DNA of 64,000 bases, taken from contig JBBTTC010000004.1 of NCBI GenBank assembly GCA_038064435.1, forward strand, positions 3,615 to 67,614, given 5' to 3'. Of this stretch, positions 3,050 through 39,338 are shown piece after piece. The position numbers were made by a program, and so were the translations under genes. Below the pieces are notes generated by a model. That model worked only from the letters and a program-made list of their open reading frames with translations. It made no database searches and had not been told where the DNA came from. The stretch's first letter is position 1. Each line of letters opens with the position of its first letter. This stretch comes from Patescibacteria group bacterium (GTDB lineage Bacteria; Patescibacteriota; Minisyncoccia; Phycocordibacterales; JACOZG01).

Positions 3050-3123
3050 TGCCGGCGGGAGGAATCGAACCTCCGACCTTGGGCTTATGAGTCCCACGCT
3101 CTAGCCAACTGAGCTACACCGGC
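3050..3123 (-). tRNA. tRNA-Met or tRNA-Ile2 (anticodon CAT), elongator type
   Basis: Minus-strand cloverleaf GCCGGTG...CTCATAA...TTCGATT...CGCCGGC. Confidence 0.75.
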
Positions 3124-3130
3124 AAAATCT

Positions 3131-3203
3131 TGTTGCGGGGGCCGGAATTGCACCGGCGCCTAGAGGTTATGAGCCTCTCGAGTTACTGCTTCTCTACCCC
3201 GCG
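3131..3203 (-). tRNA. tRNA-fMet-like (anticodon CAT), initiator-type acceptor
   Basis: CGCGGGG...CTCATAA...CCCCCGCAAC resembles E. coli initiator tRNA including a C1:A72 mismatch; D and T arms are atypical. Confidence 0.6.
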
Positions 3204-17974: not shown

Positions 17975-19078
17975 TTATCTTAATTCAGCCAATTGCCGAA
18001 GGGCCAAGCCAGTGGCCACGGCAAAGCCGGGGCCGGTGGATGCCAGAGCTTTTTCCAAAAAGGCCGGGGCCTGGGTTTTGGCAAAAGGGTTGCCCAACTC
18101 CACCGGCGCAGCAAAACTTTTGGCCGCCATCTCGAGCAAACCCTTAAGTAGGGCGCCACCGCCCAACAAAACTATTTTACTCACGGCTCGTTTTTGCTGT
18201 TCTTGATAAAGCATTAAAACTTTATTGGTTTCAGAAAATATATACTCGACGATAGTGTTGACCGTGCTGGAAATGTCACCGCCCTCCAGATGTTCCACCA
18301 GCCCCACTCGCCGCTTGATCTCCTCAGCCTTAGCAAAATCAACTCCGAGGGCCCGAGCGATGCTAAGGGTAATATCCTGCGCTCCCTTACCAATAGTGTG
18401 CGACAGTCGAACAATGCCATAATCCACTACCGTTACCTTGCTGGTGGAGGCACCGATGTCTAAAATAACGGTGACCGTCATTTCGCCAGAAAAGACCGCT
18501 CGCAGGGCACTGAAGGTCTCGATTTCAAAAAACGCTGGCGTTAATCCCTTGGCCTGACTGATGTCGCGATATTGGCTAATCGTCTCTTGGTGAATGGCGG
18601 CGACTAACACCTGCGTCTTTTTTTCTCCACCTTCACTCCTCACGGCCGGTGGCGGAATCACCCACCAATCTAACTCCACTTCCGAGATCGGCACCGGCAC
18701 ATACTTCCGCGCCTCAATCGGAATCACCTTAGTGAGAGTGGCGGCCGGAATATTGCCCGGCAAGGTAACCATAACCAACAAACTAGAGCGCAAGGGTATG
18801 GCCAAGGCGCAACTAGCGGCCGTGACGCTGGCTTCAGTAAAAAGGTCGGTTAATAGTTGGGCCGTCTTCTCATTATTAAGACGTGCCACCTGACTTACGG
18901 CCAGATCGGCATAGGGACCGATCGCCAGTTCACCATAAGTTTCTAACACGGCCTGACCTTTGTCCTTTTTTAGTTGAACCACCTTGACCGACGACGAGCC
19001 AATATCAATACCCACCACTTGGGTTGATTTTTTTTGCCAAAGACCAAAACTAAAAAACTTTTCTAGCGGCCTCACCAT
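17975..19078 (-). CDS. pilM: type IV pilus assembly protein PilM (actin-like ATPase fold)
   Basis: VGIDIGSSSVKVV phosphate-1 motif, 367 aa. Confidence 0.85.
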   Translation of the reverse strand: MVRPLEKFFSFGLWQKKSTQVVGIDIGSSSVKVVQLKKDKGQAVLETYGELAIGPYADLAVSQVARLNNEKTAQLLTDLFTEASVTAASCALAIPLRSSLLVMVTLPGNIPAATLTKVIPIEARKYVPVPISEVELDWWVIPPPAVRSEGGEKKTQVLVAAIHQETISQYRDISQAKGLTPAFFEIETFSALRAVFSGEMTVTVILDIGASTSKVTVVDYGIVRLSHTIGKGAQDITLSIARALGVDFAKAEEIKRRVGLVEHLEGGDISSTVNTIVEYIFSETNKVLMLYQEQQKRAVSKIVLLGGGALLKGLLEMAAKSFAAPVELGNPFAKTQAPAFLEKALASTGPGFAVATGLALRQLAELR

Positions 19079-19125
19079 AACATTATGATAACATACTTAA
19101 TGCTATGGATTGATAGAATTGTAGC

Positions 19126-19788
19126 ATGTGGTTGAGCATGTTTATCCACAGTTTACTAAATTTAATTTTACCGGCTCGATGTTTTGGTTGTGGTTCTGGT
19201 GGTGACTATCTCTGCACGGCCTGTTTGCAAGCCGCACCAACGGCCGAGATTGACGACACTGGCGTTGAAGCACTGTTTGATTATCGACATCCACCTATCC
19301 AGCGCGCCATTTGGGCCTTAAAATACCGCCACGCTAGTTCGATTGCCGATATTTTTGCCGGCGCGCTTGGGGCACGATTACTGGATGAAGTGGCCGACGA
19401 GCGTTGGGTCCGGCCGGGTCGCGGCACGCCGGTGATCATTACCGGCGTGCCGCTCTGGCCAGCGCGTGAGCGCTGGCGCGGCTTTAATCAAGCCGCCGCC
19501 CTAGCCAAAAGTGTAGCCAAAAAATCACCGTTTCCGCTCGAATTCCGCTCTGACATTCTGATTAAAATTAAAAATACTCCGCCGCAGGTTTCGCTCAACA
19601 GCCGAGCGACCCGACAAAAAAATGTCCGCGGCGCTTTTGCCGCTGGGCGGCCGGCGGCGGTTGCCGGCCGCGATATCATCGTCCTCGACGACGTCACCAC
19701 CACCGGCGCCACCCTCACTGAGGCGGGCCGAGCGCTCGGCGCGGTCGGCGTTGGTTCCGTCTTCACCATCGCCGTAGCTCGCGGGTAA
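19126..19788 (+). CDS. comFC: ComF family competence protein (phosphoribosyltransferase domain)
   Basis: N-terminal Cys4 zinc finger plus PRTase motif IIVLDDVTTTGATL. Confidence 0.85.
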   Translation: MWLSMFIHSLLNLILPARCFGCGSGGDYLCTACLQAAPTAEIDDTGVEALFDYRHPPIQRAIWALKYRHASSIADIFAGALGARLLDEVADERWVRPGRGTPVIITGVPLWPARERWRGFNQAAALAKSVAKKSPFPLEFRSDILIKIKNTPPQVSLNSRATRQKNVRGAFAAGRPAAVAGRDIIVLDDVTTTGATLTEAGRALGAVGVGSVFTIAVARG

Positions 19789-19832: not shown

Positions 19833-19919
19833 GGAGAGTTGGCTGAGTGGTCGAAAGCGCCTCACTGCTAACGAGGTAGGGGGTTACTCCCCTCGTGGGT
19901 TCGAATCCCACACTCTCCG
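19833..19919 (+). tRNA. tRNA-Ser (anticodon GCT)
   Basis: GGAGAGT acceptor, long variable arm, anticodon loop CTGCTAA, T-arm GGGTTCGAATCCC. Confidence 0.85.
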
Positions 19920-19941: not shown

Positions 19942-20111
19942 AAGTGAGGAGAGTGAGCGAGCCAACTGCTTGGCTCGCGTTGGGATTCGAACGGCGGAGT
20001 GCTCGATTTTTATCAAAAAATCGGCACGAGCCGGTGCCCAGACCGATCCGCCTTGGGCGGAGAGAGTCGCGGGCGAATCCTACGCATTTCGCGTCAATTA
20101 AAATACACGCC

Positions 20112-20732
20112 ATGGCAAATCAAATAACACACATAGTTTTGGCAGAGAGAATATCGGATCAACTTTTTAAAAAATTTACTCGACATACATTTCTTGTGGG
20201 GACGGTTTTTCCTGATATTCGATACCTAAAAGTAATCGAGCGCGATAAAACTCATTTTAAAGGATTAACTTTGGAGGATATTTTGAACGAAACCAGTCCT
20301 TTCGTTGCTGGTATGAAATATCACAGTTTGGTCGACGAAGTTCGGGAAAAATACGTGATCGAAAAGAACATTTACCAATTTTTTCCTGCCTCGAAATTTA
20401 TCAAGCACGCCCTTAAAACCTACGAGGATGAGATCTTATACAATAAAGTTTCTGACTGGAGCGAAATCGTAAAATATTTTGACATCATTGCCGACGGAGA
20501 AATAAAACTTGTCGAGCAGTCTGACAAGCTTAAATTGTGGCATTCGGTAATTCAAGAATATTTTAAGGAATCGCCAACCGACAATTCTCGCCGGGGCTTT
20601 GTTCTTGGGATTGGATTTTCTGATGAAATTGCGAGTGAAATAAATGGACTGATTGATAAAATGCGACAAATTCCGGAGGTTCGTGAAATCATCTTAGATT
20701 TATATAATAATTGGGATTCACTCGTACAATGA
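20112..20732 (+). CDS. hypothetical protein (AT-rich island)
   Basis: 207-aa ORF in a low-GC region downstream of tRNA-Ser. Confidence 0.5.
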   Translation: MANQITHIVLAERISDQLFKKFTRHTFLVGTVFPDIRYLKVIERDKTHFKGLTLEDILNETSPFVAGMKYHSLVDEVREKYVIEKNIYQFFPASKFIKHALKTYEDEILYNKVSDWSEIVKYFDIIADGEIKLVEQSDKLKLWHSVIQEYFKESPTDNSRRGFVLGIGFSDEIASEINGLIDKMRQIPEVREIILDLYNNWDSLVQ

Positions 20733-20757
20733 CCAAATCAAATATATACTGCTTGAT

Positions 20758-20994
20758 ATGAATATAGTGACCGGAAAATATCGCCACTACAAGGGCAAGG
20801 AATATGAAGTGGTTGGCGTGGCTAAACACAGCGAAACTCTGGAAGAGCTCGTGGTCTACCGAGCTTTGTATGGCAATCACGATCTGTGGGTCAGGCCGAC
20901 TAAGATGTTTCTGGAATCAGTCGAGGTTGATGGAAAATTGATTCTGCGCTTCCAGTTTGTGGAAAATCGATCTTTCCTCGGCGCACACCAATAA
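20758..20994 (+). CDS. DUF1653-like small protein
   Basis: YRHYKGKEYEVVGVAKHSETLEELVVYRALY...WVRP resembles DUF1653. Confidence 0.55.
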   Translation: MNIVTGKYRHYKGKEYEVVGVAKHSETLEELVVYRALYGNHDLWVRPTKMFLESVEVDGKLILRFQFVENRSFLGAHQ

Positions 20995-21001
20995 AAAAAC
21001 C

Positions 21002-21196
21002 ATGAAAACTCTAAAATGCGACCGATGCGAGCACGAAGAGACGGCAGAAACATTTGAAGAATGGATGAATAAACTCAAGCCGCACTACTTCAAAGACCAT
21101 GCTGATGTGATGAAAGACTCAAGCAAAACCAAAGAAGACATGGAAAAATGGATGACCGAAAACAAGGCGAGATTTGATTCTGTCCCAACATCTTGA
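21002..21196 (+). CDS. hypothetical small protein
   Basis: 64-aa ORF with CxxC pair (CDRCEH), AT-rich. Confidence 0.35.
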   Translation: MKTLKCDRCEHEETAETFEEWMNKLKPHYFKDHADVMKDSSKTKEDMEKWMTENKARFDSVPTS

Positions 21197-21247
21197 ATTT
21201 TCGGACTGGAAACGGTGCTGGCGCGCCTTCACTAAACGACATTTAAC

Positions 21248-21931
21248 ATGACCCAAATTATCTTTAAATACGATCTCGGCAAGGACACAGAAAACTTCAT
21301 CCGTGGAACTCGGGCGAAGAATAGCTCCAAACCAACTAGGCTTCAGGAAGTATACGTCGCTCAAAACGGCACCGATTATGACGAAGTAAAAGTTAAGGAA
21401 TTTTTAGAATCATACGCAAACGAGATTTCTCTCGATCCGAATAAAGCGGTGAAAGAGCTTGAGGAAAGCTGGAAGAAGATAGAAAAAACATTTCTGCAAC
21501 GAATTGAAACCATGTTCAAAATCACTTACCCGACCTCACAAATTACCGCCTACCTCACCACCAACCAGCGTTGCACCTATAACATTCCCGAAAATTATTT
21601 CTTCGTAAATTTCACTGCCAAATCTTCTAACCACATTATCATGCATGAACTATTCCATTTTTATACCTGGTACACACTTCATGATGATCTGGTGGCAGCG
21701 GGAATAGACGAAAATCAATATAACAACATTAAAGAATCGCTTACGATTCTGCTCAACACCGAATTTCTAGAATTGATGAACGGCGCACACGATGAGGGCT
21801 ACCCTCAACACGTCGAGATGCGCGAGAAAGTACAAGAATTATGGAGCAGTTCAAAAAACATCCGGGAAGTTGCTTCCGGTGTGTTTTCCCTCCCCAACCC
21901 CAGCAACTCAAGTTCTTATTCCTCATCGTAG
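21248..21931 (+). CDS. hypothetical protein with HExxH motif (possible zinc-metallopeptidase-like)
   Basis: IIMHELFHFYTW; no other recognised similarity. Confidence 0.4.
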   Translation: MTQIIFKYDLGKDTENFIRGTRAKNSSKPTRLQEVYVAQNGTDYDEVKVKEFLESYANEISLDPNKAVKELEESWKKIEKTFLQRIETMFKITYPTSQITAYLTTNQRCTYNIPENYFFVNFTAKSSNHIIMHELFHFYTWYTLHDDLVAAGIDENQYNNIKESLTILLNTEFLELMNGAHDEGYPQHVEMREKVQELWSSSKNIREVASGVFSLPNPSNSSSYSSS

Positions 21932-22054
21932 GCGTGCTTGAGACCGCCGGCGGAAAAATTACTCTCACGCCCGCCCATCAGACCCCCAAAAACACATACT
22001 CCTACGAAGACCTAAGATTGGTGAAGTTGTTCTTGTCATTGTAAGATAAGACAG

Positions 22055-22721: not shown

Positions 22722-23381
22722 TCAGACTAAATCTTTTTTCTTGCTCTCAAATTCATCTTTATTAATTTCGCCTTTGGCGTAACGGCTTTTAAGAACTTCA
22801 AGAGCGGAACCGCCCGGCACCTGCCCATGACCCGCTAGCCATTTAACGAGCGAAACAACACCAAAGATCACCAATACCCACCATAAAATCATCAATAGCC
22901 AACCGAGACCACCGGCGCGTGCATGAGCAAAATATCCGGGCCCACCACCGCCCCAGGTCTGCATCATCGGCATCCAACCACCAAAATTGCCCATACCGCC
23001 CAAAGCTGAAGCCGACGGATCACAACCCGACAAACGTTTGCCGAGCGCGATGTGAATCTGCTCCTCTCCCTCCTCACCATGAGCTTGGACCATCATGGCA
23101 TTCATGGCGGCATGCGACTCGCCCATCATCTGCCCCATGTAATATTCGCCCAGCACGCCAAACTGTTCGTCGCCCAAACTCGTGCAGGTAATTTCTTTGG
23201 CCTGCAATTTAGACCACAGTTCCAAGCCTTCTTGTTCCTCACGGGCGGTATGCTCCACAATTTCATCCCAATCAACTGCGACACCCGCGCGGCCGCCACC
23301 CATCATCATCTGCGCTTCAGCGTCATTGATAAAAAACAAAACACTGCCAGCAAACATCATCCCAAAAATAATTTTTTTCAT
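22722..23381 (-). CDS. exported Met/His-rich protein with C-terminal SHOCT domain (candidate copper-binding)
   Basis: Signal peptide; Met-rich stretches MMMGGG, MGQMMGESHAAMNAMMVQAHG, WMPMMQTWGGGG; C-terminal TM plus SHOCT-like LKSRYAKGEINKDEFESKKKDL. Confidence 0.5.
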   Translation of the reverse strand: MKKIIFGMMFAGSVLFFINDAEAQMMMGGGRAGVAVDWDEIVEHTAREEQEGLELWSKLQAKEITCTSLGDEQFGVLGEYYMGQMMGESHAAMNAMMVQAHGEEGEEQIHIALGKRLSGCDPSASALGGMGNFGGWMPMMQTWGGGGPGYFAHARAGGLGWLLMILWWVLVIFGVVSLVKWLAGHGQVPGGSALEVLKSRYAKGEINKDEFESKKKDLV

Positions 23382-23397
23382 GTTTACAATTAAATCG

Positions 23398-23781
23398 CTA
23401 TTTAAACCAATCTCTGGGTGTGCGCGGCCAGCCGCGCACCAAAAGTAGGGCCAGCGGCGCGCCCCAATTAGCCCAACGTTCGACGAAATCCCAAATTGGA
23501 TCAGGCCCGAATGGCCAGCGAACCATTGCAGTCCATAGTCCCCACACCATCATCCAGAGGAGAGCTACACGAACCGGCCTAATGAGAACTAAGAGAGCTA
23601 ACGTTACGTCGATAATGCCAATAAAAAAAAGAATCGTGGTGATTGTATCGGCATTGATAATACCGAATGGATAGAAATACTTAAACCACCCCTCCTTGCC
23701 CTGAAGCGCAAACATACCGTGGCCAATGAACTCGCCAGCCACCGCGATACGCAAAACCCATTCGACAAGTTTTACATTCAT
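23398..23781 (-). CDS. small polytopic membrane protein (DoxX-like)
   Basis: 127 aa with about 4 TM helices. Confidence 0.4.
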   Translation of the reverse strand: MNVKLVEWVLRIAVAGEFIGHGMFALQGKEGWFKYFYPFGIINADTITTILFFIGIIDVTLALLVLIRPVRVALLWMMVWGLWTAMVRWPFGPDPIWDFVERWANWGAPLALLLVRGWPRTPRDWFK

Positions 23782-23839
23782 TAATTATTTTTATTACTAA
23801 ACTATTAATAAACACCGCTCATTTTAATTTTACCACCTT

Positions 23840-25900
23840 TTACAATTCTCGTCTCTTTAATAAAATAGCATTAACCGAAACGATAATCGTGCTGACTGAC
23901 ATCAACACCGCGGCCAAGGCCGGTTCCAGCACAATACCGCGAAAAGCCAAAGCGCCAGCGGCCAGCGGCAGGGCAAAGATGTTGTAGCCAGCCGCCCACC
24001 ACAGATTTTGAATCATTTTGGAATAAGTGAGCTGAGACAATCTAATAATTTTCACAATATCGCGTGGATCATTCCGCACCAAAATGATTCCGGCCGACTC
24101 GATCGCCACATTGGTGCCAGCGCCGATGGCAACACCGAGATCGGCGGCGGCGAGGGCCGGCGCGTCATTAATGCCATCACCCACCATGGCCACCTTCAAG
24201 CCACGACCCTGCAGAGCCTTAACCTTAGCTGATTTTTGCTCTGGCAAAACGCGGGCAAAGTATTCCTCAATACCCAATTCGGCGGCAACCTGTTTGGCCA
24301 CATCTTCAGAATCACCGGTGATCATCGCTGTTTTCACACCCAAACCATGAAGCTGCTCGATGGCTGCCTTGGCCTCCGGACGAATAGTATCGGCCACGCT
24401 GATGGTCCCGATCTTCTGCCCGCCAACTTCCACCACAATATCGGCACCGCCCCGATGACCAACAAAAACGTTTTGGCCATCAACCACCGCTTCGGCGCCA
24501 ATACCGGGAATACGCTTAAAGTTTTGCGCCGACTTAACAATTAACTTTCGATGCTTGGCCTCGGCGACAATGGCTTGAGCAATGGGATGTTCCGAGTGTT
24601 CGTCCACGGCCGCGGCTAGGGCTAAAGATTCGTCCGAGCTAACTCCAGTAACGGCAAATTTACCGGCCGTTAGAGTGCCAGTTTTATCAAACAACACCAT
24701 ATTGACCGTCCGGGCCGCCTCGAGCGCCAAGCGCTGCTTGACCAAAAAACCGTTCCGCGCCGCCTTGGTGGTGGAAATTGATGCCACCAGCGGCACGGCA
24801 AGGCCGAGTGCGTGCGGACAAGCCACCACCAACACCGCCACCAAACGCGCCACGGCAAAACCTACTTCCGCGCCAGCCAACAGCCACGAAACCAAGGTGA
24901 TCACTCCGCCCCCCACCGCCACCACGGTTAAGTAGAGCGCCGCGCGATCCGACAAAATTTGTAAGCGTGATTTAGAAGCCTGCGCCTCGGCCACCAACCG
25001 CATCACTCCAGCCAAAAAAGTTTTCTCACCAATACTATCCACCCGGACTTGCAACGAGCCGTCGCCATTGATCGTACCGGCAATCACCCTATTGCCAGAT
25101 TTCTTAACCACCGGCTTGGATTCACCGGTCACCATTGACTCATTAATGTCCGAGTCACCGCTAATGATCGCGCCGTCGGCGGGAATTTTAGCCCCCGGAC
25201 GCACCACCACCGTATCGCCGGCCAACAATTCCGACAAAGCGATCATTACGGTTTTTTCTCCACGGACGACCTCGGCCGTATCGGGCAATAGTTTCGATAA
25301 TTCTTTTAGCGCGCCCTGCGCGCCAGAAACGGCCCGCATCTCCAACCAGTGACCAAGAAGCATGATCGTGATCAGAGTGGTCAACTCCCAGAACAGCGCC
25401 TCCGCACCGGCAAAAACTGCATAGACGCTCCAGAAGTAGGCGGCGGAGATGGCGATGGCTATTAGGGTCATCATGCCGGGCAGTCGTCCCTTAATTTCCC
25501 GCCACGCTCCAGCCATAAAAACCCAACCGCCATAAAAGAAAACCAGAGAACCCAAAATTAACGGCAAATAATCAGTGCCCGGGAAAGCCGGTGGTGACCA
25601 GAGTCCGCCAGAGGCGGATCCGCCTATGGCGGAAAAAATCATTTGAGTAACATCGGCATACAGCACCACCGGTATCGTCAAAACTAAACTAACCCAGAAT
25701 TTACGCATAAACATGGCGGTGCTGTGACCTGCGTGTTTACTCGTACTGTGCTTAATCGGCACCAAACTCATTCCACATTCCGGGCACATGCCCGGCCGAG
25801 ACTGTTGCACCTCCGGATGCATGGGGCAAGTGTAAACTGTCCCCGCTCTATCTTGGTGCGATTCGTTTTTAATTGGTGTGTGATGACAACAATTGTGCAT
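23840..25900 (-). CDS. heavy-metal (copper) translocating P-type ATPase, CopB-like
   Basis: His/Cys-rich N-terminus, YTCPMHPEV...CPECGM zinc-ribbon metal-binding domain, CPH transduction motif, DKTGTLT phosphorylation site, GDGINDAP hinge. Confidence 0.9.
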   Translation of the reverse strand: MHNCCHHTPIKNESHQDRAGTVYTCPMHPEVQQSRPGMCPECGMSLVPIKHSTSKHAGHSTAMFMRKFWVSLVLTIPVVLYADVTQMIFSAIGGSASGGLWSPPAFPGTDYLPLILGSLVFFYGGWVFMAGAWREIKGRLPGMMTLIAIAISAAYFWSVYAVFAGAEALFWELTTLITIMLLGHWLEMRAVSGAQGALKELSKLLPDTAEVVRGEKTVMIALSELLAGDTVVVRPGAKIPADGAIISGDSDINESMVTGESKPVVKKSGNRVIAGTINGDGSLQVRVDSIGEKTFLAGVMRLVAEAQASKSRLQILSDRAALYLTVVAVGGGVITLVSWLLAGAEVGFAVARLVAVLVVACPHALGLAVPLVASISTTKAARNGFLVKQRLALEAARTVNMVLFDKTGTLTAGKFAVTGVSSDESLALAAAVDEHSEHPIAQAIVAEAKHRKLIVKSAQNFKRIPGIGAEAVVDGQNVFVGHRGGADIVVEVGGQKIGTISVADTIRPEAKAAIEQLHGLGVKTAMITGDSEDVAKQVAAELGIEEYFARVLPEQKSAKVKALQGRGLKVAMVGDGINDAPALAAADLGVAIGAGTNVAIESAGIILVRNDPRDIVKIIRLSQLTYSKMIQNLWWAAGYNIFALPLAAGALAFRGIVLEPALAAVLMSVSTIIVSVNAILLKRREL

Positions 25901-25906
25901 AAGGTT

Positions 25907-26332
25907 TTATTTGAGTTCCCACTTAAATAAACGTTCGGAAACAGCACCAACGTTTTTGATTTTTAATTCCAGATAGTTGGAAGAGTAATCGAGAGATTGG
26001 AATACCAGTACACCCGCCCGATGATGCCCGCCGACTGCTCCCTCCCATCTTATGGGCCGATGCTCCGCGCCTCGGTCATCAGTCAAAGTAGTTACACTGA
26101 CCATATCCTGATCTAGTTCGATCGAATGTGTATCCATCACTACGTTGAACATCCATTCCCGAGAACCGGACGACAACTTTATGGGCGTCACGGCCACAGT
26201 AACACCGGCCCGCTGATCGCTTTTTGTTTCCCATTTTTGCTGTACTTGTTCTGGCAAACGCTCCTCATAAAAAACCAATATCGCCACAAGGAAAGCGGCG
26301 ACCAAGATGATTATGGTCGTTGATTTTTTCAT
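25907..26332 (-). CDS. hypothetical exported protein
   Basis: 141 aa with N-terminal TM/signal; coupled to the ATPase gene. Confidence 0.4.
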   Translation of the reverse strand: MKKSTTIIILVAAFLVAILVFYEERLPEQVQQKWETKSDQRAGVTVAVTPIKLSSGSREWMFNVVMDTHSIELDQDMVSVTTLTDDRGAEHRPIRWEGAVGGHHRAGVLVFQSLDYSSNYLELKIKNVGAVSERLFKWELK

Positions 26333-26772
26333 AGATGCTTTTTGAACTTGATGATTTTATGACCGATAAATACGATCCCCAAAATATTGAAGGCTAAACC
26401 AACCCAAAAGATCTGTAACTGATATTGAGCGACGAAGGAAAGAGCACCGGCCAAACCAAGCAAAGGCACGATATTGGTCAAGTAATGGGCGCAACACGAA
26501 ATCATCGAGAGCGTCGAAGTTGTACCGGTCACGCCCAAAATCTTAGCCGCGCCGGGCCGTCCGACGATCAGACCCCGAAGATAAACATACAAGCCAACCT
26601 GAACACCAAAACCAAAAGCCAAACTGGTGATAAAATACCAGAAATCAGCAAACTGCCCCCAAGTAAAATTCCAACCAGAAACCAAGGTCAACACCGCAAA
26701 ATACAGCCCGAGCAACAGCAAGCTGGCCGATAAACCGTATACTAGTGATTTTTTTACCTCAAACATCCTCAT
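26329..26772 (-). CDS. hypothetical membrane protein
   Basis: 147 aa, 4 TM helices, CCAHY motif. Confidence 0.4.
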   Translation of the reverse strand: MRMFEVKKSLVYGLSASLLLLGLYFAVLTLVSGWNFTWGQFADFWYFITSLAFGFGVQVGLYVYLRGLIVGRPGAAKILGVTGTTSTLSMISCCAHYLTNIVPLLGLAGALSFVAQYQLQIFWVGLAFNILGIVFIGHKIIKFKKHL

Positions 26773-26781
26773 AGTTTTATT

Positions 26782-27558
26782 TTATACCCCACAACTAACT
26801 TGCTCTTGCCGTTCGGATGAAGCCAATGAAGCGGCGATTTTGGCGTAACCCGAAGCGCTGGAATACTGGGCGTCCAAAACTTCACGCGGTTTGACGGCAT
26901 CCCATTCGACACCCTGATTTTTGAAGTAAACAGCAATGGTCCGATAATGATCCGGAAACCAGTAAGTATTAGCGATGAGCGCCATCTGCCACATCTCTTC
27001 TTCGCTCGCACCCTGCGCGGCCATTAATTCTAGCAAGCCCAACATCGCCATACCATGATTGCAGTCAGGGAAATGCGCCGAGTTATTACAGCATGGCCGA
27101 TAAATCCCCCGCGCTAGGCGATCAACGATCGCCTGTTGCTCGGGTGTTAGGGTGACAAATTGATGCTGACTGTAGTGATCCATGGTCGGACCACGAGCCA
27201 AGGTCCAACCGCCGGTCGAGGCAAAATTGCCGGCGCCACCGTAGCGCGCGTCCATCATTTCGCCCGATTCCAATATTGGATTTTTATTCGCCAAACCGAG
27301 CGCCCAAAACAAATTAAGCCACTGGTGAGAATTGGCCGCCGTAATTTCTAGCGGCGCTAATTTTTGATCAGTTAGCCAAGCATCGTATCCGGCTGGCAAT
27401 TTTTCAACGTCAATTACTCCGGACGCCACCAACCGGGCACCCAAGTCACCCCAATGCAACTTCACACTCTCAACCTCTTTTGTCGGTTGTGATTTTGGCA
27501 AACCAATCAGAACAATTAACAGAACTAAAATTGCAATCGTTAAACTATTTTTCATCAC
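26782..27558 (-). CDS. hypothetical exported Cys-rich protein
   Basis: Signal peptide; RPCCNNSAHFPDCNHGM cluster; 258 aa. Confidence 0.45.
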   Translation of the reverse strand: MMKNSLTIAILVLLIVLIGLPKSQPTKEVESVKLHWGDLGARLVASGVIDVEKLPAGYDAWLTDQKLAPLEITAANSHQWLNLFWALGLANKNPILESGEMMDARYGGAGNFASTGGWTLARGPTMDHYSQHQFVTLTPEQQAIVDRLARGIYRPCCNNSAHFPDCNHGMAMLGLLELMAAQGASEEEMWQMALIANTYWFPDHYRTIAVYFKNQGVEWDAVKPREVLDAQYSSASGYAKIAASLASSERQEQVSCGV

Positions 27559-27720
27559 AGCAATGAGCTAATTTTTTTACAATGTCGCCAATCGACCACG
27601 GCTTTCCGTTACCGATCTCATTTAGTATCTGGCGGCGCTTTTCGCATTTCGAACAATGCGGAAGGTGGAGAATTTTTGTAATCTTAGCGATCATGTCGCC
27701 CAACTTGAATTGTTTTTTCA
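27548..27720 (-). CDS. possible small Cys-containing protein (below ORF-track length cutoff)
   Basis: By-eye translation gives MKKQFKLGDMIAKITKILHLPHCSKCEKRRQILNEIGNGKPWSIGDIVKKLAHCCDEK with an upstream RBS; not in the ORF track. Confidence 0.25.
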
Positions 27721-28500
27721 TAACAGAAAAATTAATACCCCAAGAATCACCATGGCTACTCCGCCCCAGAGTCTAAGATTTTTTGTTTCGGATTTTTTCC
27801 AACTCTGCACCTTAGCGATCAGCTCGCGGTTGCTAGCGATGAGTAGAATAATTACCAATGGCAGGACAAAAATTAGATTGTAGAGAAGTAAATAACCAAC
27901 ACCAGTTAGATACGTGCTGTAATCGTGGAGCAAACCGAGCACCATTAAGTAGGGTCCGCCGGTACACGGGAACTCGCACAAGCCTACCAAAGCCCCCAGC
28001 AAAAAAGCCGCCGGCAAGGTAGCACGAGACATCAGGCCGGCCATTTTTTTGTGAGCCACGGACGGGATCCGTAGCTTGACCGGAAAAGACGGGAAGAATT
28101 CATTCACCAGATTAAGGCCGCCGAGCGCCAACAAAAGCGCCGCCCCCACCTTGGCCATAAAATGCGGAGTATTGAAGAGATGCAGAGCTTGGAATAAACC
28201 GAGGCCGATTAACAGATAAACCAGCAATAAGCCCAAAATATAGACGCTACCAATCTTAAGAATACCGGCCCGCGACTTGCCCAAAGATAGCAAAAAGCCG
28301 ACGGTTAAAATCAGAAGGCCAAAGGCGCAGGGATTGATGCTGTCGATCAAGGCCGCCACCGCCACCAAGGGCAAAAGCCATTTCCCGCCCGCGCTTAAGT
28401 TCCACAACGCGGTTGTGCCGATATTACCGGCGCGAAAGAAAATCACTCCGCCAAAGATGATGAGAGCTAGGGCGATTAGAATCGCCAATTTTTTACTCAT
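27718..28500 (-). CDS. ccdA: cytochrome c biogenesis / thiol-disulfide transporter CcdA (DsbD transmembrane family)
   Basis: Conserved Cys in TM1 (INPCAF) and TM4 (FPCTGGPYL). Confidence 0.8.
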   Translation of the reverse strand: MSKKLAILIALALIIFGGVIFFRAGNIGTTALWNLSAGGKWLLPLVAVAALIDSINPCAFGLLILTVGFLLSLGKSRAGILKIGSVYILGLLLVYLLIGLGLFQALHLFNTPHFMAKVGAALLLALGGLNLVNEFFPSFPVKLRIPSVAHKKMAGLMSRATLPAAFLLGALVGLCEFPCTGGPYLMVLGLLHDYSTYLTGVGYLLLYNLIFVLPLVIILLIASNRELIAKVQSWKKSETKNLRLWGGVAMVILGVLIFLL

Positions 28501-28994
28501 TAGGGTGTGACTAGAGCCGAAAAGCCGAGCTCGACTGGCCGGCCGGTGCTATTTTCAATCGTCACCACGCGCTGGATCCGGCCCACGCCGGCCGGCCCGT
28601 GGGCGGCCGGATCAAACACCACTTCAATCAATGCTTCATCGCCGGGCGCCAAATTTTCGTCGATCTTGGGAATGGCGCCATGACCGGGCATACCGTAGGG
28701 GCCAATTTTTTTACCGTCAACAGTAAGTTCGGCCGTGGTGCACATGCAAGAGGTATACATTTTATTAATGGTCACCACAGTCGGGCTGGTATTTTTAATG
28801 CTAAAAACATGCTTAACCATACCAGCGGCCATGGAAATGGTGCCAAAATTGTAATCGGGGTTTTCTTCAACCACCAGAGCCGCGCCACCACTGGCCGCGG
28901 CCGGAACAGTTTTTTGATCAGTGGGACGGGCCAACCAAATCAATCCAGACAAACCGAGAATAACAACGACAATGTAAATAGTTATTTTGTTCAT
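28500..28994 (-). CDS. DUF1573-like exported protein
   Basis: Signal anchor then beta-rich domain with CMC motif. Confidence 0.45.
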   Translation of the reverse strand: MNKITIYIVVVILGLSGLIWLARPTDQKTVPAAASGGAALVVEENPDYNFGTISMAAGMVKHVFSIKNTSPTVVTINKMYTSCMCTTAELTVDGKKIGPYGMPGHGAIPKIDENLAPGDEALIEVVFDPAAHGPAGVGRIQRVVTIENSTGRPVELGFSALVTP

Positions 28995-29093
28995 AGTGAT
29001 TAATGATTAACAAAACAAAAATCCCTCAACCGAGGGATAAGCAGGCTGACGGAGCAAAACGCCATTCGACAAAACGACCCTCACTCCGTCGCC

Positions 29094-29534
29094 CTAAAAA
29101 ACGGTTGGACTAGTTTCGTGCAAAGCCAACCAGCGATTGATTTTGACTCGAGCTGGCGCAACCTCAAGCCCAAATCGTGCCCAAATTCTCGGGGGCGATT
29201 CAGAAAAGACCGTCCAACCAATAATCACCAAAAGAGTGACGAGCAGCAACAGGGCTCCCAAACTAACAGTCCAAAAACTTGAGGCTGGCCCCTTGGCCGC
29301 GCCAAGATGAAAATTAAGAGCAGTTAAAAAACCGCCACTGGCTGGACAATCAGCTAAACTAATTAACTCGGCCAAACAATCATGATTATTCTGGCCAGCC
29401 GCATGACCCATTAATAATGGACTAAAAACCATCAAACCGGCCAAAACAACGATTAACAATATCGCCACACCGTAAGTTAAAAAACTCAGCCGCAACATGA
29501 CGTTCATTTTAACAAAATGTGTGGTAGACTTCAA
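29094..29534 (-). CDS. hypothetical membrane protein
   Basis: 146 aa, two TM helices, Cys pair CLAELISLADC. Confidence 0.35.
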   Translation of the reverse strand: MKSTTHFVKMNVMLRLSFLTYGVAILLIVVLAGLMVFSPLLMGHAAGQNNHDCLAELISLADCPASGGFLTALNFHLGAAKGPASSFWTVSLGALLLLVTLLVIIGWTVFSESPPRIWARFGLEVAPARVKINRWLALHETSPTVF

Positions 29535-29536
29535 GC

Positions 29537-30112
29537 ATGATTAGCTTTTTAAAGAGAAACATATTATTGATGGTCGCCTTTGGTTTGCCAGTGGTATTTA
29601 TTGCGGGAGTAGTTTTGAGTATTTATCTGCCCGGTGTGTCAACGGCTTATGATTTCGTCTACGCGAGCTGTAACAAAAGCTATGGTTATTACGATGATGT
29701 TTGTAGCCGGTATCTAAACAACGCTCATGTTGTAGAAAATGGCAAGCTGGTAAATAAGCCGATTGATCCGACCCAAGACATAAACCGAAACAAAATTCCC
29801 GATGCCAACGAGTTCACGGCGCGCTTTTTCCGTCACGATACAGCTAAAAACGAGAGTCGAGAAATTACTCTGGGCGAGACGCAAATGTTAAATTTCAATC
29901 AGCTTTTGACTTCGCCCGACGGCGTGACGATCAGTAGCCACTCCAGCTATAATTCTGGCTTCTTCCCACTGTTTGACGGACGATCCAGTTATGGCCGATC
30001 ACTAGTCAAGGGCCGCCGCAGTACACGCCTCAATTTAATTAACGGCGTCGATCGCTATTATGATCCGTCCGACTTTCACTTTGTCGGCTGGGTTTTACCA
30101 GGTAGAAACTAA
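29537..30112 (+). CDS. hypothetical membrane-anchored protein
   Basis: 191 aa with N-terminal TM. Confidence 0.4.
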   Translation: MISFLKRNILLMVAFGLPVVFIAGVVLSIYLPGVSTAYDFVYASCNKSYGYYDDVCSRYLNNAHVVENGKLVNKPIDPTQDINRNKIPDANEFTARFFRHDTAKNESREITLGETQMLNFNQLLTSPDGVTISSHSSYNSGFFPLFDGRSSYGRSLVKGRRSTRLNLINGVDRYYDPSDFHFVGWVLPGRN

Positions 30113-36156: not shown

Positions 36157-36399
36157 ATGTTTACGGTATATATTTTACAAAATCAAGTCGGAAAATTGTA
36201 TACTGGCCAAACAAAAAACTTTGAAACAAGGCTAATCGAACATAATGTGACTGGTCATGGCTATACTGCTAAACATCGCCCATGGAAGGTGGTGCTGATG
36301 GAAAAATACCAGAATCGCACCGAAGCGATGAAACGAGAAAAATATCTGAAAACTGGGGCGGGGCGCGACTGGATAAAAAGACAATTATTGCACGTGTAG
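36157..36399 (+). CDS. small GIY-YIG nuclease family protein (UPF0213/YhbQ-like)
   Basis: VYILQNQVGKLYTGQTKNFETRLIEHN fits the GIY-YIG core; stop codon lies inside the tRNA 5' end. Confidence 0.7.
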   Translation: MFTVYILQNQVGKLYTGQTKNFETRLIEHNVTGHGYTAKHRPWKVVLMEKYQNRTEAMKREKYLKTGAGRDWIKRQLLHV

Positions 36400-36461
36400 C
36401 TCAGCGGTAGAGTAGGCGTCTTATACACGCCCGGTCCCTGGTTCGAATCCAGGCACGTGCA
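36390..36461 (+). tRNA. tRNA-Ile (anticodon TAT, predicted to read AUA)
   Basis: Cloverleaf: acceptor GCACGTG/CACGTGC, anticodon stem GGCGT/ACGCC, loop CTTATAC, T-arm CCTGG-TTCGAAT-CCAGG. Confidence 0.7.
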
Positions 36462-38947: not shown

Positions 38948-39322
38948 GGGGATGATCGGCCTCGACATTTAGTGTTGCTGGTTCGGGCAGGTCGAGTTCT
39001 CTGGATACTCGTTAAACACCGGAAAAGCATAAGTGTAAACTTATCGTCTACGGGTAGTCGGGGTGTGGCTTCGCCATATCCTGTTACCCCCTCTTTCGCC
39101 TTAGGCTAAAGAGCATCAGCGCTGGAGACTTCCGATATCTGGACGCTGGTGTTATATCTTCGGGATAGTTGGCGCGACGCCTCGGCGCGCTGGCGAACCA
39201 TAGAGGCACAGATCGGGCGGGTTTTGACTGTTCGGCCCCGCTCGAACTTAATTAAACAGTCTAAGCTTGTAGATCGCACCACTAACCCTATTTGCACCCG
39301 GGTTCGATTCCCGGCATCTCCA
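38948..39322 (+). ncRNA. ssrA: tmRNA (ssrA)
   Basis: 5' GGGGATGATCGGCCTCGAC and 3' GGGTTCGATTCCCGGCATCTCCA pair into a tRNA-like domain; directly downstream of smpB; CCA not encoded; tag frame not resolved. Confidence 0.7.
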
Positions 39323-39338
39323 CTCATTAAAACATTAG

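Follow-up and report, generated by a model that had tools for sequence, protein, structure and literature searches.

Copper ATPases of the P1B-3 (CopB) type are now held to be Cu(I) exporters (PMC7558416). Copper and envelope thiol chemistry are further linked by TlpA, which reduces ScoI and CoxB ahead of copper insertion (PMC7558416, PMC6669012), and by the Scs system, in which a DsbD-like membrane reductase and oxidoreductases tie copper stress to envelope thiol redox (PMC10907172). In the literature searched on Patescibacteria and copper, the only mention was of the presence of copA. Here we describe an island of ten genes on the minus strand, at positions 22722-29534, of a 64,000-nucleotide stretch (the window) of contig JBBTTC010000004.1 from a Patescibacteria group bacterium. 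Systems that pair a copper-pump operon with thiol reduction in the envelope are known as a kind, but most of the partner genes here belong to unnamed protein families. The initial annotation had proposed an uncharacterised envelope system for copper handling and thiol redox, a reading supported by comparative genomics. On balance, the island is probably a conserved, operon-like locus for copper export and for envelope copper and thiol handling, built from three modules.

The annotation had described ten co-oriented, close-set genes, and all ten open reading frames (ORFs), g1 to g10, were present when the window was checked. They are arranged head-to-tail and tightly packed, with overlaps of 1-14 nucleotides (nt) at the g2/g3, g3/g4, g4/g5 and g6/g7 junctions and gaps of 6-58 nt at the remaining junctions except for a 99-nt spacer between g1 and g2. 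This spacing is operon-like. The features of the island are the following.

29094-29534, minus strand: g1, 146 amino acids (aa), two transmembrane (TM) helices.
29011-29093, minus strand: two-hairpin element in the g1-g2 spacer.
28500-28994, minus strand: g2, membrane-anchored, Ig-like DUF1573 protein.
27718-28500, minus strand: g3, CcdA-like protein (DsbD_TM/LysE superfamily) with six TM helices.
27545-27721, minus strand: g4, 58 aa, with HCSKC ... KLAHCCDEK.
26782-27558, minus strand: g5, with CCNNSAHFPDCNHG at residues 156-169.
26329-26772, minus strand: g6, four TM helices, with SCCAHY.
25907-26332, minus strand: g7, 141 aa, N-terminal membrane anchor and Ig-like beta-sandwich.
23840-25900, minus strand: g8, P1B-type ATPase of the CopB (P1B-3) kind.
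23398-23781, minus strand: g9, four TM helices, weakly DoxX-like.
22722-23381, minus strand: g10, Met-rich SHOCT protein.

The CCNN motif of g5 and the CCAHY motif of the 4-TM protein g6 were found as the annotation had reported them. Its small Cys protein exists as g4, although with 58 aa and not 57, and its exported 141-aa protein corresponds to g7, which proved to be membrane-anchored. The families of g5, g6 and g7 are missing from Pfam-A 2025 and NCBIfam 2026, and the public annotation of the same metagenome-assembled genome lists the three as consecutive hypothetical proteins (AAB468_01205, AAB468_01200 and AAB468_01195).

When compared with the CopB operons copYZAB of Enterococcus hirae and copB-mco of Staphylococcus aureus, g8 shares the CPH, GYN, MSXST and DKTGT motifs and a His-rich N-terminus, whereas the g8 N-terminus combines a Cys/His stretch with an HMBD zinc-ribbon-like domain, and the window is without CopY, CopZ, CsoR or a multicopper oxidase, the partners of the pump being unnamed families. 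The CcdA/DsbD-TlpA-ScoI/CoxB pathway of Bradyrhizobium likewise places a membrane electron-conduit homologue beside an outward Cys-pair protein in a copper context; in the window, however, that partner is an Ig-like DUF1573 protein with a C-M-C motif instead of a thioredoxin fold, the candidate client g5 is an unnamed all-alpha protein, and there is no oxidase subunit. The ScsABCD system of Salmonella, Proteus and Caulobacter differs in envelope type and in protein families, and Pfam and NCBIfam searches of the window cluster revealed no ScsB, ScsC, ScsD or thioredoxin-fold homologue, g3 being the bare TM core. With the CcmG-CcmH part of cytochrome c maturation System I the related islands share the order of a CcdA/DsbD-type protein, a Redoxin and a helical Cys protein, and the ELMxxGxSxxE region of g5 can be aligned weakly, whereas g5 is three times the size of the CcmH domain with extra Cys, extra His and a C-terminal Cys tail, and neither other ccm genes nor a heme context were identified. 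Finally, MerP/MerT, CopC/CopD (YcnJ) and YcnI likewise combine a small membrane protein, of which a TM helix bears vicinal Cys, and a beta-rich domain that binds metal outside the cytoplasm. The occasional fusion of g6 with g7, and the cytoplasmic HMA-type domains of some members, add to the likeness to these two-part uptake and relay systems. As differences, g6 has four TM helices with a CCxH motif and g7 a THS...GGHHR His triad, and neither protein gave a sequence or profile match to MerT, CopC, CopD, YcnI or PCuAC. A specific test for Mer transport likewise found no MerT, MerP, merA or merR match in Pfam or NCBIfam among the ten proteins.

Co-occurrence of the gene set in other genomes had been named beforehand as a test, and it was positive across 80 species-level genome loci anchored on g5. 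The loci were taken from the at least 588 GTDB species genomes with g5; the ten island proteins plus four from its flanks served as queries, after which all genes were clustered. Every homologue of the cluster genes was located on the strand of g5, and gene order and strand were kept over dozens of species genomes at 35-75% protein identity. Since the homologues co-occur co-oriented in 80 genomes while the window's flanking proteins were found in 0/80 loci, the clustering is beyond chance. A P1B ATPase co-oriented with g5 was present in 25 of the 26 loci having at least 8 kb on either side; the same fully flanked loci contained DUF1573 in 21, g3 in 19, g6 in 8 and g7 in 9 cases. By clustering, the 80 loci contained CcdA-like proteins (70 loci), g1-like proteins (55), DUF1573 (52), a CsoR-family repressor (42; for example, L061 7419-7691), two families here called type X (27) and type Y (20), HMA-DsbD_2 (25), Cupredoxin_1 (21), Redoxin/Sco-like proteins (19), g7 (19), small SHOCT proteins (18) and g6 (16). 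The recurrent order was g1, then DUF1573 or a Sco/Redoxin-like protein, then a CcdA-like protein, then type X or type Y, and then g5. The window holds the union of the modules in a single run; a search of it for the other island families found no CsoR, HMA-DsbD_2, cupredoxin, type X, type Y, Redoxin or DUF302.

The pump was described in the initial annotation as a CPH-motif ATPase with a His/Cys-rich N-terminus, and both features were located in g8: the N-terminus begins MHNCCHH, and the CPH motif is found in TM4 (ACPH at residue 361, 24812-24820), followed by the DKTGT phosphorylation motif at residue 405 (24674-24688). The protein was matched by TIGR01511 with 578 bits (cutoff 397) versus 398 bits for TIGR01512, and by the Pfam families E1-E2_ATPase (2e-51), Hydrolase (1e-33) and HMBD, the last at residues 22-48. 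The sequence of TM5, NLWWAAGYNIFALP, conforms to NX5GYNX4P and that of TM6, PALAAVLMSVSTIIVSVN, to PX6MSXSTX5N, which together with CPH are the P1B-3/CopB signatures of the Arguello classification. Grouping of the ATPase with Zn/Cd exporters had been named in advance as evidence against a copper system; among proteins of known structure in the PDB, g8 scored highest with Legionella CopA (441 bits) and Archaeoglobus CopA (384 bits) as against 250-257 bits for Cd and Zn pumps, and its nucleotide-binding domain was nearer to that of AfCopB (222 bits) than to that of AfCopA (168 bits). From these sequence characteristics, g8 is assigned as a CopB-type (P1B-3) copper ATPase, and by homology as a copper exporter.

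Two further genes follow the pump. The 4-TM protein g9, which has an invariant H21, had been called DoxX-like, a description that stands as a weak likeness only: the Pfam PF07681 DoxX gathering score of 23.6 was not reached by g9 (E 0.02, 15.9 bits) or by its orthologues (20.4-23.1 bits), which also touched DoxX_3 and MauE. It is located directly after CPH-type ATPases in five loci. The g10 protein consists of an exported Met/His-rich helical domain, one TM helix and a cytoplasmic SHOCT domain (PF09851, E 1.2e-9, 38 bits versus a cutoff of 27), in agreement with its description as a Met-rich SHOCT protein; there are 17 Met in 219 aa, 13 of them in the 138-aa ectodomain. Full-length orthologues were found in only 3 loci, the commoner form being a Met-rich TM-SHOCT protein of approximately 80 aa found in about 18 loci, often beside the ATPase.

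The g6 protein is characterized by an invariant GTTSxxMxSCCxHYxxNxxP motif in TM3 and by a QYQ motif. There were 583 close homologues, and an exhaustive profile search recovered 957 cluster representatives at E<=1e-3 (approximately 950 clusters at 50% identity); one named member is from a Nitrosomonadales bacterium. The g7 domain was fused to g6 in 35 of the best 150 representatives, and other members carry N-terminal YHS, HMBD or HMA domains, the three cytoplasmic metal-binding domains of P1B pumps. The AlphaFold2 (AF2) model of g7 (pLDDT 90) is a TM-anchored Ig-like beta-sandwich, and T68-H69-S70, W96 and G101-G102-H103-H104-R105 are invariant; Foldseek returned generic Ig folds only, and a weak similarity to DUF5643 was detected in 24 of 35 members. 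The genomic context was investigated in 80 metagenome loci anchored on g6, 60 of which had enough downstream sequence and 33 at least 3.5 kb of it. In 47 of the 60 the gene immediately following g6 was g7, which together with the fusions (35/150) indicates that g6 and g7 are partners, and an ATPase was found no more than 2.5 kb downstream of g6 in 24 of the 33. The TM4 motif of these 24 pumps was CPD in 13, CPH in 6 and CPC in 4.

The topology of g6 is read by eye, from its K/R-rich ends, as N-in, which would put the appended metal-binding domains on the cytoplasmic side and g7 on the outer side. The architecture reads as a putative series of a cytoplasmic metal domain, a membrane CCxH site and an outward His site; g6 is predicted to be a membrane metal-binding or translocation unit, and g7 an extracytoplasmic metal site partnered with it. 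Several other identities were considered for the pair. Kinship of g6 to the ATPase, either as an N-terminal TM fragment or as a homologue, was rejected at a probability of 1.6% in an hhalign comparison with g8; some g6 members are labelled 'Cu+-exporting ATPase' by the Joint Genome Institute (JGI). A fused YHS-HMBD-g6 query was matched over its whole length by ATPases in tblastn, but the Paracoccus ATPase gene is of normal length and not a g6 fusion. The proposal that g7 is CopC, PCuAC, YcnI or CusF was without profile or fold support. The CPD pumps near g6-g7 (L005 9603-11693, L007 8904-11147, L031, L033, L069 and others) have His/Met-rich N-termini, HMBD and P1B-1-like TM5 and TM6 motifs; within the literature searched, the CPD motif is reported only for three rhizobial pumps (PMC5552934).

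Upstream in the island, g1 has no Pfam match and presents an outward loop with invariant C53, C63 and H76 and a C-terminal WLxLxExSP motif. Homologues are found directly upstream of DUF1573, in 26 loci by phmmer and in the 55 of 80 obtained by clustering. Translation probably starts at an internal ATG near 29507, since the TTG at 29534 abuts a divergent gene at 29537. The next gene, g2, was correctly recognized as DUF1573 (Pfam PF07610, E 1.1e-12, 48.3 bits versus a cutoff of 26.1); its invariant residues comprise TSCMCT, M102 and H132, and it weakly matches the OS_HP2 (seleno)protein family. Selenocysteine forms of DUF1573 with a UGC motif have been described (PMC9312934). In 19 loci the position of g2 is taken by a membrane-anchored CYPAC Redoxin that passes the SCO1/SenC model. 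One or the other of DUF1573 and the Sco/Redoxin-like protein is present in 68 of the 80 loci and both in only 3, such that the two are almost mutually exclusive. The case for DUF1573 as the outward-facing protein whose Cys pair partners the CcdA-like one rests mainly on this exchange, and g2 is predicted to work with g3 on the extracytoplasmic side, through its Cys pair, in thiol redox, in Cu(I) binding or in both. In the literature searched, DUF1573 was tied neither to CcdA nor to copper, and the query combining DUF1573 with CcdA was dominated by papers on ccdAB toxin-antitoxin systems.

The identification of g3 as CcdA, made in the initial annotation, is supported by profile-profile comparison, in which g3 aligned with bona fide DsbD_TM proteins of related islands (hhalign probability 91%, E 9e-7) with C58 and C175/C179 in register with the DsbD_TM PCC and CCAP motifs. 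These Cys are invariant in 57 orthologues, C58 in a PC motif and C175/C179 in CxFPC. The other matches were weak, the best being SfLAP with 27.6 bits (cutoff 35); ArsG and the NCBIfam DsbD model (E 0.003) were also matched. We infer from this sequence evidence that g3 is a divergent CcdA-like protein for which electron transfer across the membrane is predicted. DsbD_TM proteins of an alternative module (L003 7219-7989, L005 12897-13763, L007 2566-3432) contain the vicinal Cys pairs APCC and TxCCAP, which replace the single Cys per motif usual in CcdA. The small g4 protein has an 86%-identical copy in locus L029. Elsewhere the slot between g3 and g5 is occupied by type X, a cytoplasmic protein of approximately 170 aa with the C-terminus VDCCDE(K), or by type Y, a CPxC-containing membrane protein; the two never occur together, and both end in CC. 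What g4 shares with type X is solely the C-terminal tail KPWSIGDIVKKLAHCCDEK, and on this basis g4 is assigned as a putative short cytoplasmic variant of the type X family. A membrane-anchored thioredoxin-like protein with a WCPHC motif was observed between type X and g5 in some loci (L039 3164-3556, L066 5670-6047, L081 1332-1691, L083 4717-5100).

The g5 protein, for which the ORF used here starts at GTG and the annotated one at ATG, has a single N-terminal TM anchor and an all-alpha extracytoplasmic fold (AF2 pLDDT 80). More than 6,483 homologues were found, none with Pfam domains and almost all from Patescibacteria. In 32 diverse homologues with a mean identity of 60%, C156, C157, C166, H168 and the C-terminal C256 were invariant; the motif is RPCCxNSxxFxDCNHG with a C-terminal CG tail, and longer homologues have a second tail, ...GCGI. 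Foldseek gave no significant match to a PDB structure, the best being the CcmH periplasmic domain 2hl7 (E 1.7, probability 0.72, target TM-score 0.64 over 69 columns). An alignment of 11 CcmH sequences (E. coli plus ten plasmid-borne homologues) was therefore of interest for this best match, and hhalign of g5 against it gave a score of 24.6 (P 9e-4, probability 23%), aligning g5 138-189 to the CcmH core with RPCCNNS opposite CPKCQNNS and ELMAAQGASEEEM opposite ELMQEGKSKKEI. As controls, all 200 of 200 column shuffles scored lower (maximum 22.8) and unrelated profiles scored 10-18. Kinship to CcmH is a supported lead and not family membership since the CxxC is not conserved. A place at the end of the thiol module, in thiol redox or in Cu binding, is predicted for the protein, whose core may be CcmH-like. 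An Erv/ALR-like sulfhydryl oxidase, suggested by eye from the resemblance of YRPCCxNSxHF to YPCxxCSxHF, was rejected with no Erv structure among the Foldseek matches. Searches of PDB sequences with g5, g6, g7, g2, the g3 profile and type X gave nothing useful.

Confinement of g5 to Patescibacteria was ruled out by homologues of 36% identity on plasmids of Burkholderia and Paraburkholderia, which keep RPCCDNSTxFQDCNHG and have as neighbours CcdA, TlpA, SCO, DUF411, DUF2933, DoxX, P-type ATPases and a MerR-type regulator. Two such plasmid homologues, L180 8836-9789 (Burkholderia thailandensis) and L181 8824-9741 (Paraburkholderia fungorum), both adjoin a class I S-adenosylmethionine (SAM)-dependent methyltransferase; the plasmid homologues have RR-containing N-termini that appear Tat-like by eye. 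The g5 homologues of these two hosts include JMY07_RS29590 of Burkholderia thailandensis AW34-19p and NHH62_RS01555 of Paraburkholderia fungorum. An ICMT-family methyltransferase is present in some of the Patescibacteria islands.

The spacer between g1 and g2 contains a two-hairpin element that starts exactly 1 nt after the g1 stop and consists of a long hairpin followed by a terminator-like hairpin, ATCCCTCGGTTGAGGGAT, and a T-run; a terminator scan identified the second hairpin as ATCCCT...AGGGAT plus the T-run. A strict pattern matched 12 times in 1.79 Mb of loci, and 10 of these matches began exactly 1 nt past the stop of a g1 homologue; the arrangement recurs behind g1 homologues in at least 10 other genomes. 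From a subset of 8 of the 13 spacers RNAalifold predicted 17 pairs, of which 7 showed compensatory changes; aligned with MAFFT, the full set was of too low quality for this prediction. The spacer had no match in Rfam. As judged from its sequence, the element may be a terminator or attenuator gating g2-g10.

Beyond the family assignment of the ATPase, all functional steps are inferred; for the accessory metal unit and the CcdA-driven chain, the basis is synteny kept across genomes, the fusion of domains, the exchange of modules and ligands that do not vary. According to the favoured interpretation, g8 would pump Cu(I) out of the cytoplasm, and g6-g7 would form one membrane and extracytoplasmic metal unit that works with ATPases of the HMBD type (CPH or CPD) and serves as a metal relay through the membrane or as a receiver at it. 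The CcdA-like g3 would pass reducing equivalents through the membrane to its outward partner and the Cys pair there, the partner being g2 in the window and a Sco/Redoxin-like protein elsewhere, from which they may go on to g5 with its Cys3-His site, flexible Cys tail and possible CcmH-like core. The pathway would keep copper-binding or copper-damaged thiols reduced, with g1 and g4 and its CC-ending relatives as presumed accessory parts and g9 and g10 as presumed peripheral helpers of the pump. The invariant Cys/His motifs in g1, g2, g5, g6 and g7 count in favour of this interpretation.

Several results weigh against it. The terminator-like hairpin parts g1 from g2, and no metal regulator was found among the window genes, flanks included. 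The CcdA assignment of the annotation fell short in Pfam, where g3 had no DsbD_TM match at E<=0.1, and the conserved His/Met loops of g3 (LHxFNTPHFM, H150) appear from sequence to be as fitting in a metal transporter as in an electron carrier. The link of g5 to CcmH is weak by both Foldseek and hhalign, HMMER detected no g5-CcmH match in Pfam or PDB, and g5 is without the LRCxxC motif of CcmH, having YRPCC instead, in which the second Cys alone aligns. The Met clusters that the annotation had singled out in g10 are not conserved in position except for M85 and M164. Vicinal CC pairs characterize the handling of Hg(II) more than that of Cu(I); in the Paraburkholderia context merA/merB are located approximately 9 kb from the g5 homologue, and among the CsoR-family regulators of the islands 25 of 42 have the C-H-H fingerprint and 17 the canonical C-H-C, a hint that there may be two kinds of sensor or two metals.

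A more specific proposal, which we advance tentatively and regard as possible at most, is that the island holds two mechanisms not previously recognized. In this proposal g6-g7 would represent a class of its own among copper translocators or relays, small and independent of ATP, working through a CCxH site within the membrane and a His-triad beta-sandwich that faces outward; it would share its cytoplasmic metal domains with P1B pumps and act alongside the CPH and CPD pumps. The second mechanism would be a reductive chain in the envelope without a thioredoxin, with a divergent CcdA reducing the C-M-C protein DUF1573, which would service g5; g5 itself would be a distant, enlarged relative of CcmH turned from heme-site to copper-site thiol chemistry.

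Other functions can be envisaged for the same genes. The island could supply copper to cuproproteins and not detoxify it, with g6-g7 acting in uptake (compare CopC/CopD and CcoA), the ATPase re-exporting Cu(I) for insertion and the CcdA-like/DUF1573/g5 chain preparing Cys ligands in the manner of TlpA-Sco-CoxB. The cytoplasmic YHS, HMBD or HMA domains on g6 would fit a hand-over on the cytoplasmic side, Sco/Redoxin-like proteins stand in the place of DUF1573 in the loci mentioned above, multicopper oxidase or Cupredoxin_1 proteins occur in some related islands, and CopA2/CcoI-type pumps and TlpA-Sco are established routes (PMC7558416). We nevertheless consider supply unlikely: there is no cuproenzyme in the window's cluster, Patescibacteria are without respiratory oxidases according to the literature (PMC8672522), and the CsoR-type repressors, the DUF302, DUF2933 and YHS proteins and the CopA pumps in pairs belong to the usual content of resistance islands. 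The accessory modules could instead act on several metals or on a different thiophilic one, for example Hg(II), Ag(I), Au or Cd, the copper pump being a mere neighbour in a mixed metal-resistance island. The vicinal CC in g5, g6, g4, type X, type Y and the related DsbD_TM proteins favours this explanation, such motifs recalling MerT, MerC and MerA, as do the nearby merA/merB of Paraburkholderia, the C-H-H regulators and the unusual CPD motif of many neighbouring pumps. It is made improbable by the copper-type transmembrane signatures of the pumps, the regulators with the canonical Cu(I) fingerprint, the multicopper oxidase and cupredoxins of related islands and the lack of MerA, MerR, MerP and MerT in the window and among the frequent island families.

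The genes g1-g5 might also constitute a general extracytoplasmic thiol-disulfide or maturation pathway of the CcmG/CcmH kind that has no dedicated metal link and is often found beside copper genes. The weak similarity of g5 to CcmH, the CcdA and Redoxin arrangement mirroring the ccmG-ccmH order and the occurrence of g5 without g6-g7 in most loci are consistent with such a pathway. The co-oriented ATPase in all but one of the fully flanked loci, the CsoR-family repressors inside 42 of the 80 islands, the location of the Burkholderia g5 homologues in metal islands and the lack of the CcmH CxxC in g5 argue against it, and we give it only a slim probability. A chance juxtaposition of genes sharing no function would agree with a window that has no regulator and has a terminator-like hairpin after g1, although it is contradicted by synteny, with order and strand kept across divergent genomes, by the g6-g7 fusions and by flanks that are never conserved, and is improbable in the extreme.

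The neighbours of the island in the window are unrelated to it (DUF2157, DUF7282, Kelch, DUF1653 and a ComF-like protein). A PilM-like ORF, recognized by eye only, is located at 17975-19078, and 19126-19788 encodes a phosphoribosyltransferase that is ComF-like and has a double zinc ribbon; together (17975-19788) they suggest a type IV pilus and competence neighbourhood, typical of Patescibacteria. The window also contains a tmRNA gene at 38948-39325 and five tRNA genes (302-375, 3050-3203, 19833-19919, 36390-36461), one of which is approximately 2.8 kb from the island end (g10, 22722) and adjoins a stretch of lower GC content (0.42) at 20001-22000.

The results bring forward three abundant families without names: g5 with more than 6,000 homologues, g6 with approximately 950 clusters, and g7 as the partner of g6. 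They are abundant in Patescibacteria and found outside as well, as with g5 on Burkholderia plasmids. They also provide leads in DUF1573 as a candidate partner of CcdA, in the CCxH membrane module fused to YHS, HMBD or HMA domains and in the possible CcmH-like core of g5. Because Burkholderia and Paraburkholderia with g5 homologues on their plasmids can be cultured, genetics is possible despite the uncultured source. The island is retained by hundreds of Patescibacteria species although their genomes are tiny, and control of copper and thiols in the envelope is therefore probably important for their surface-attached lifestyle.

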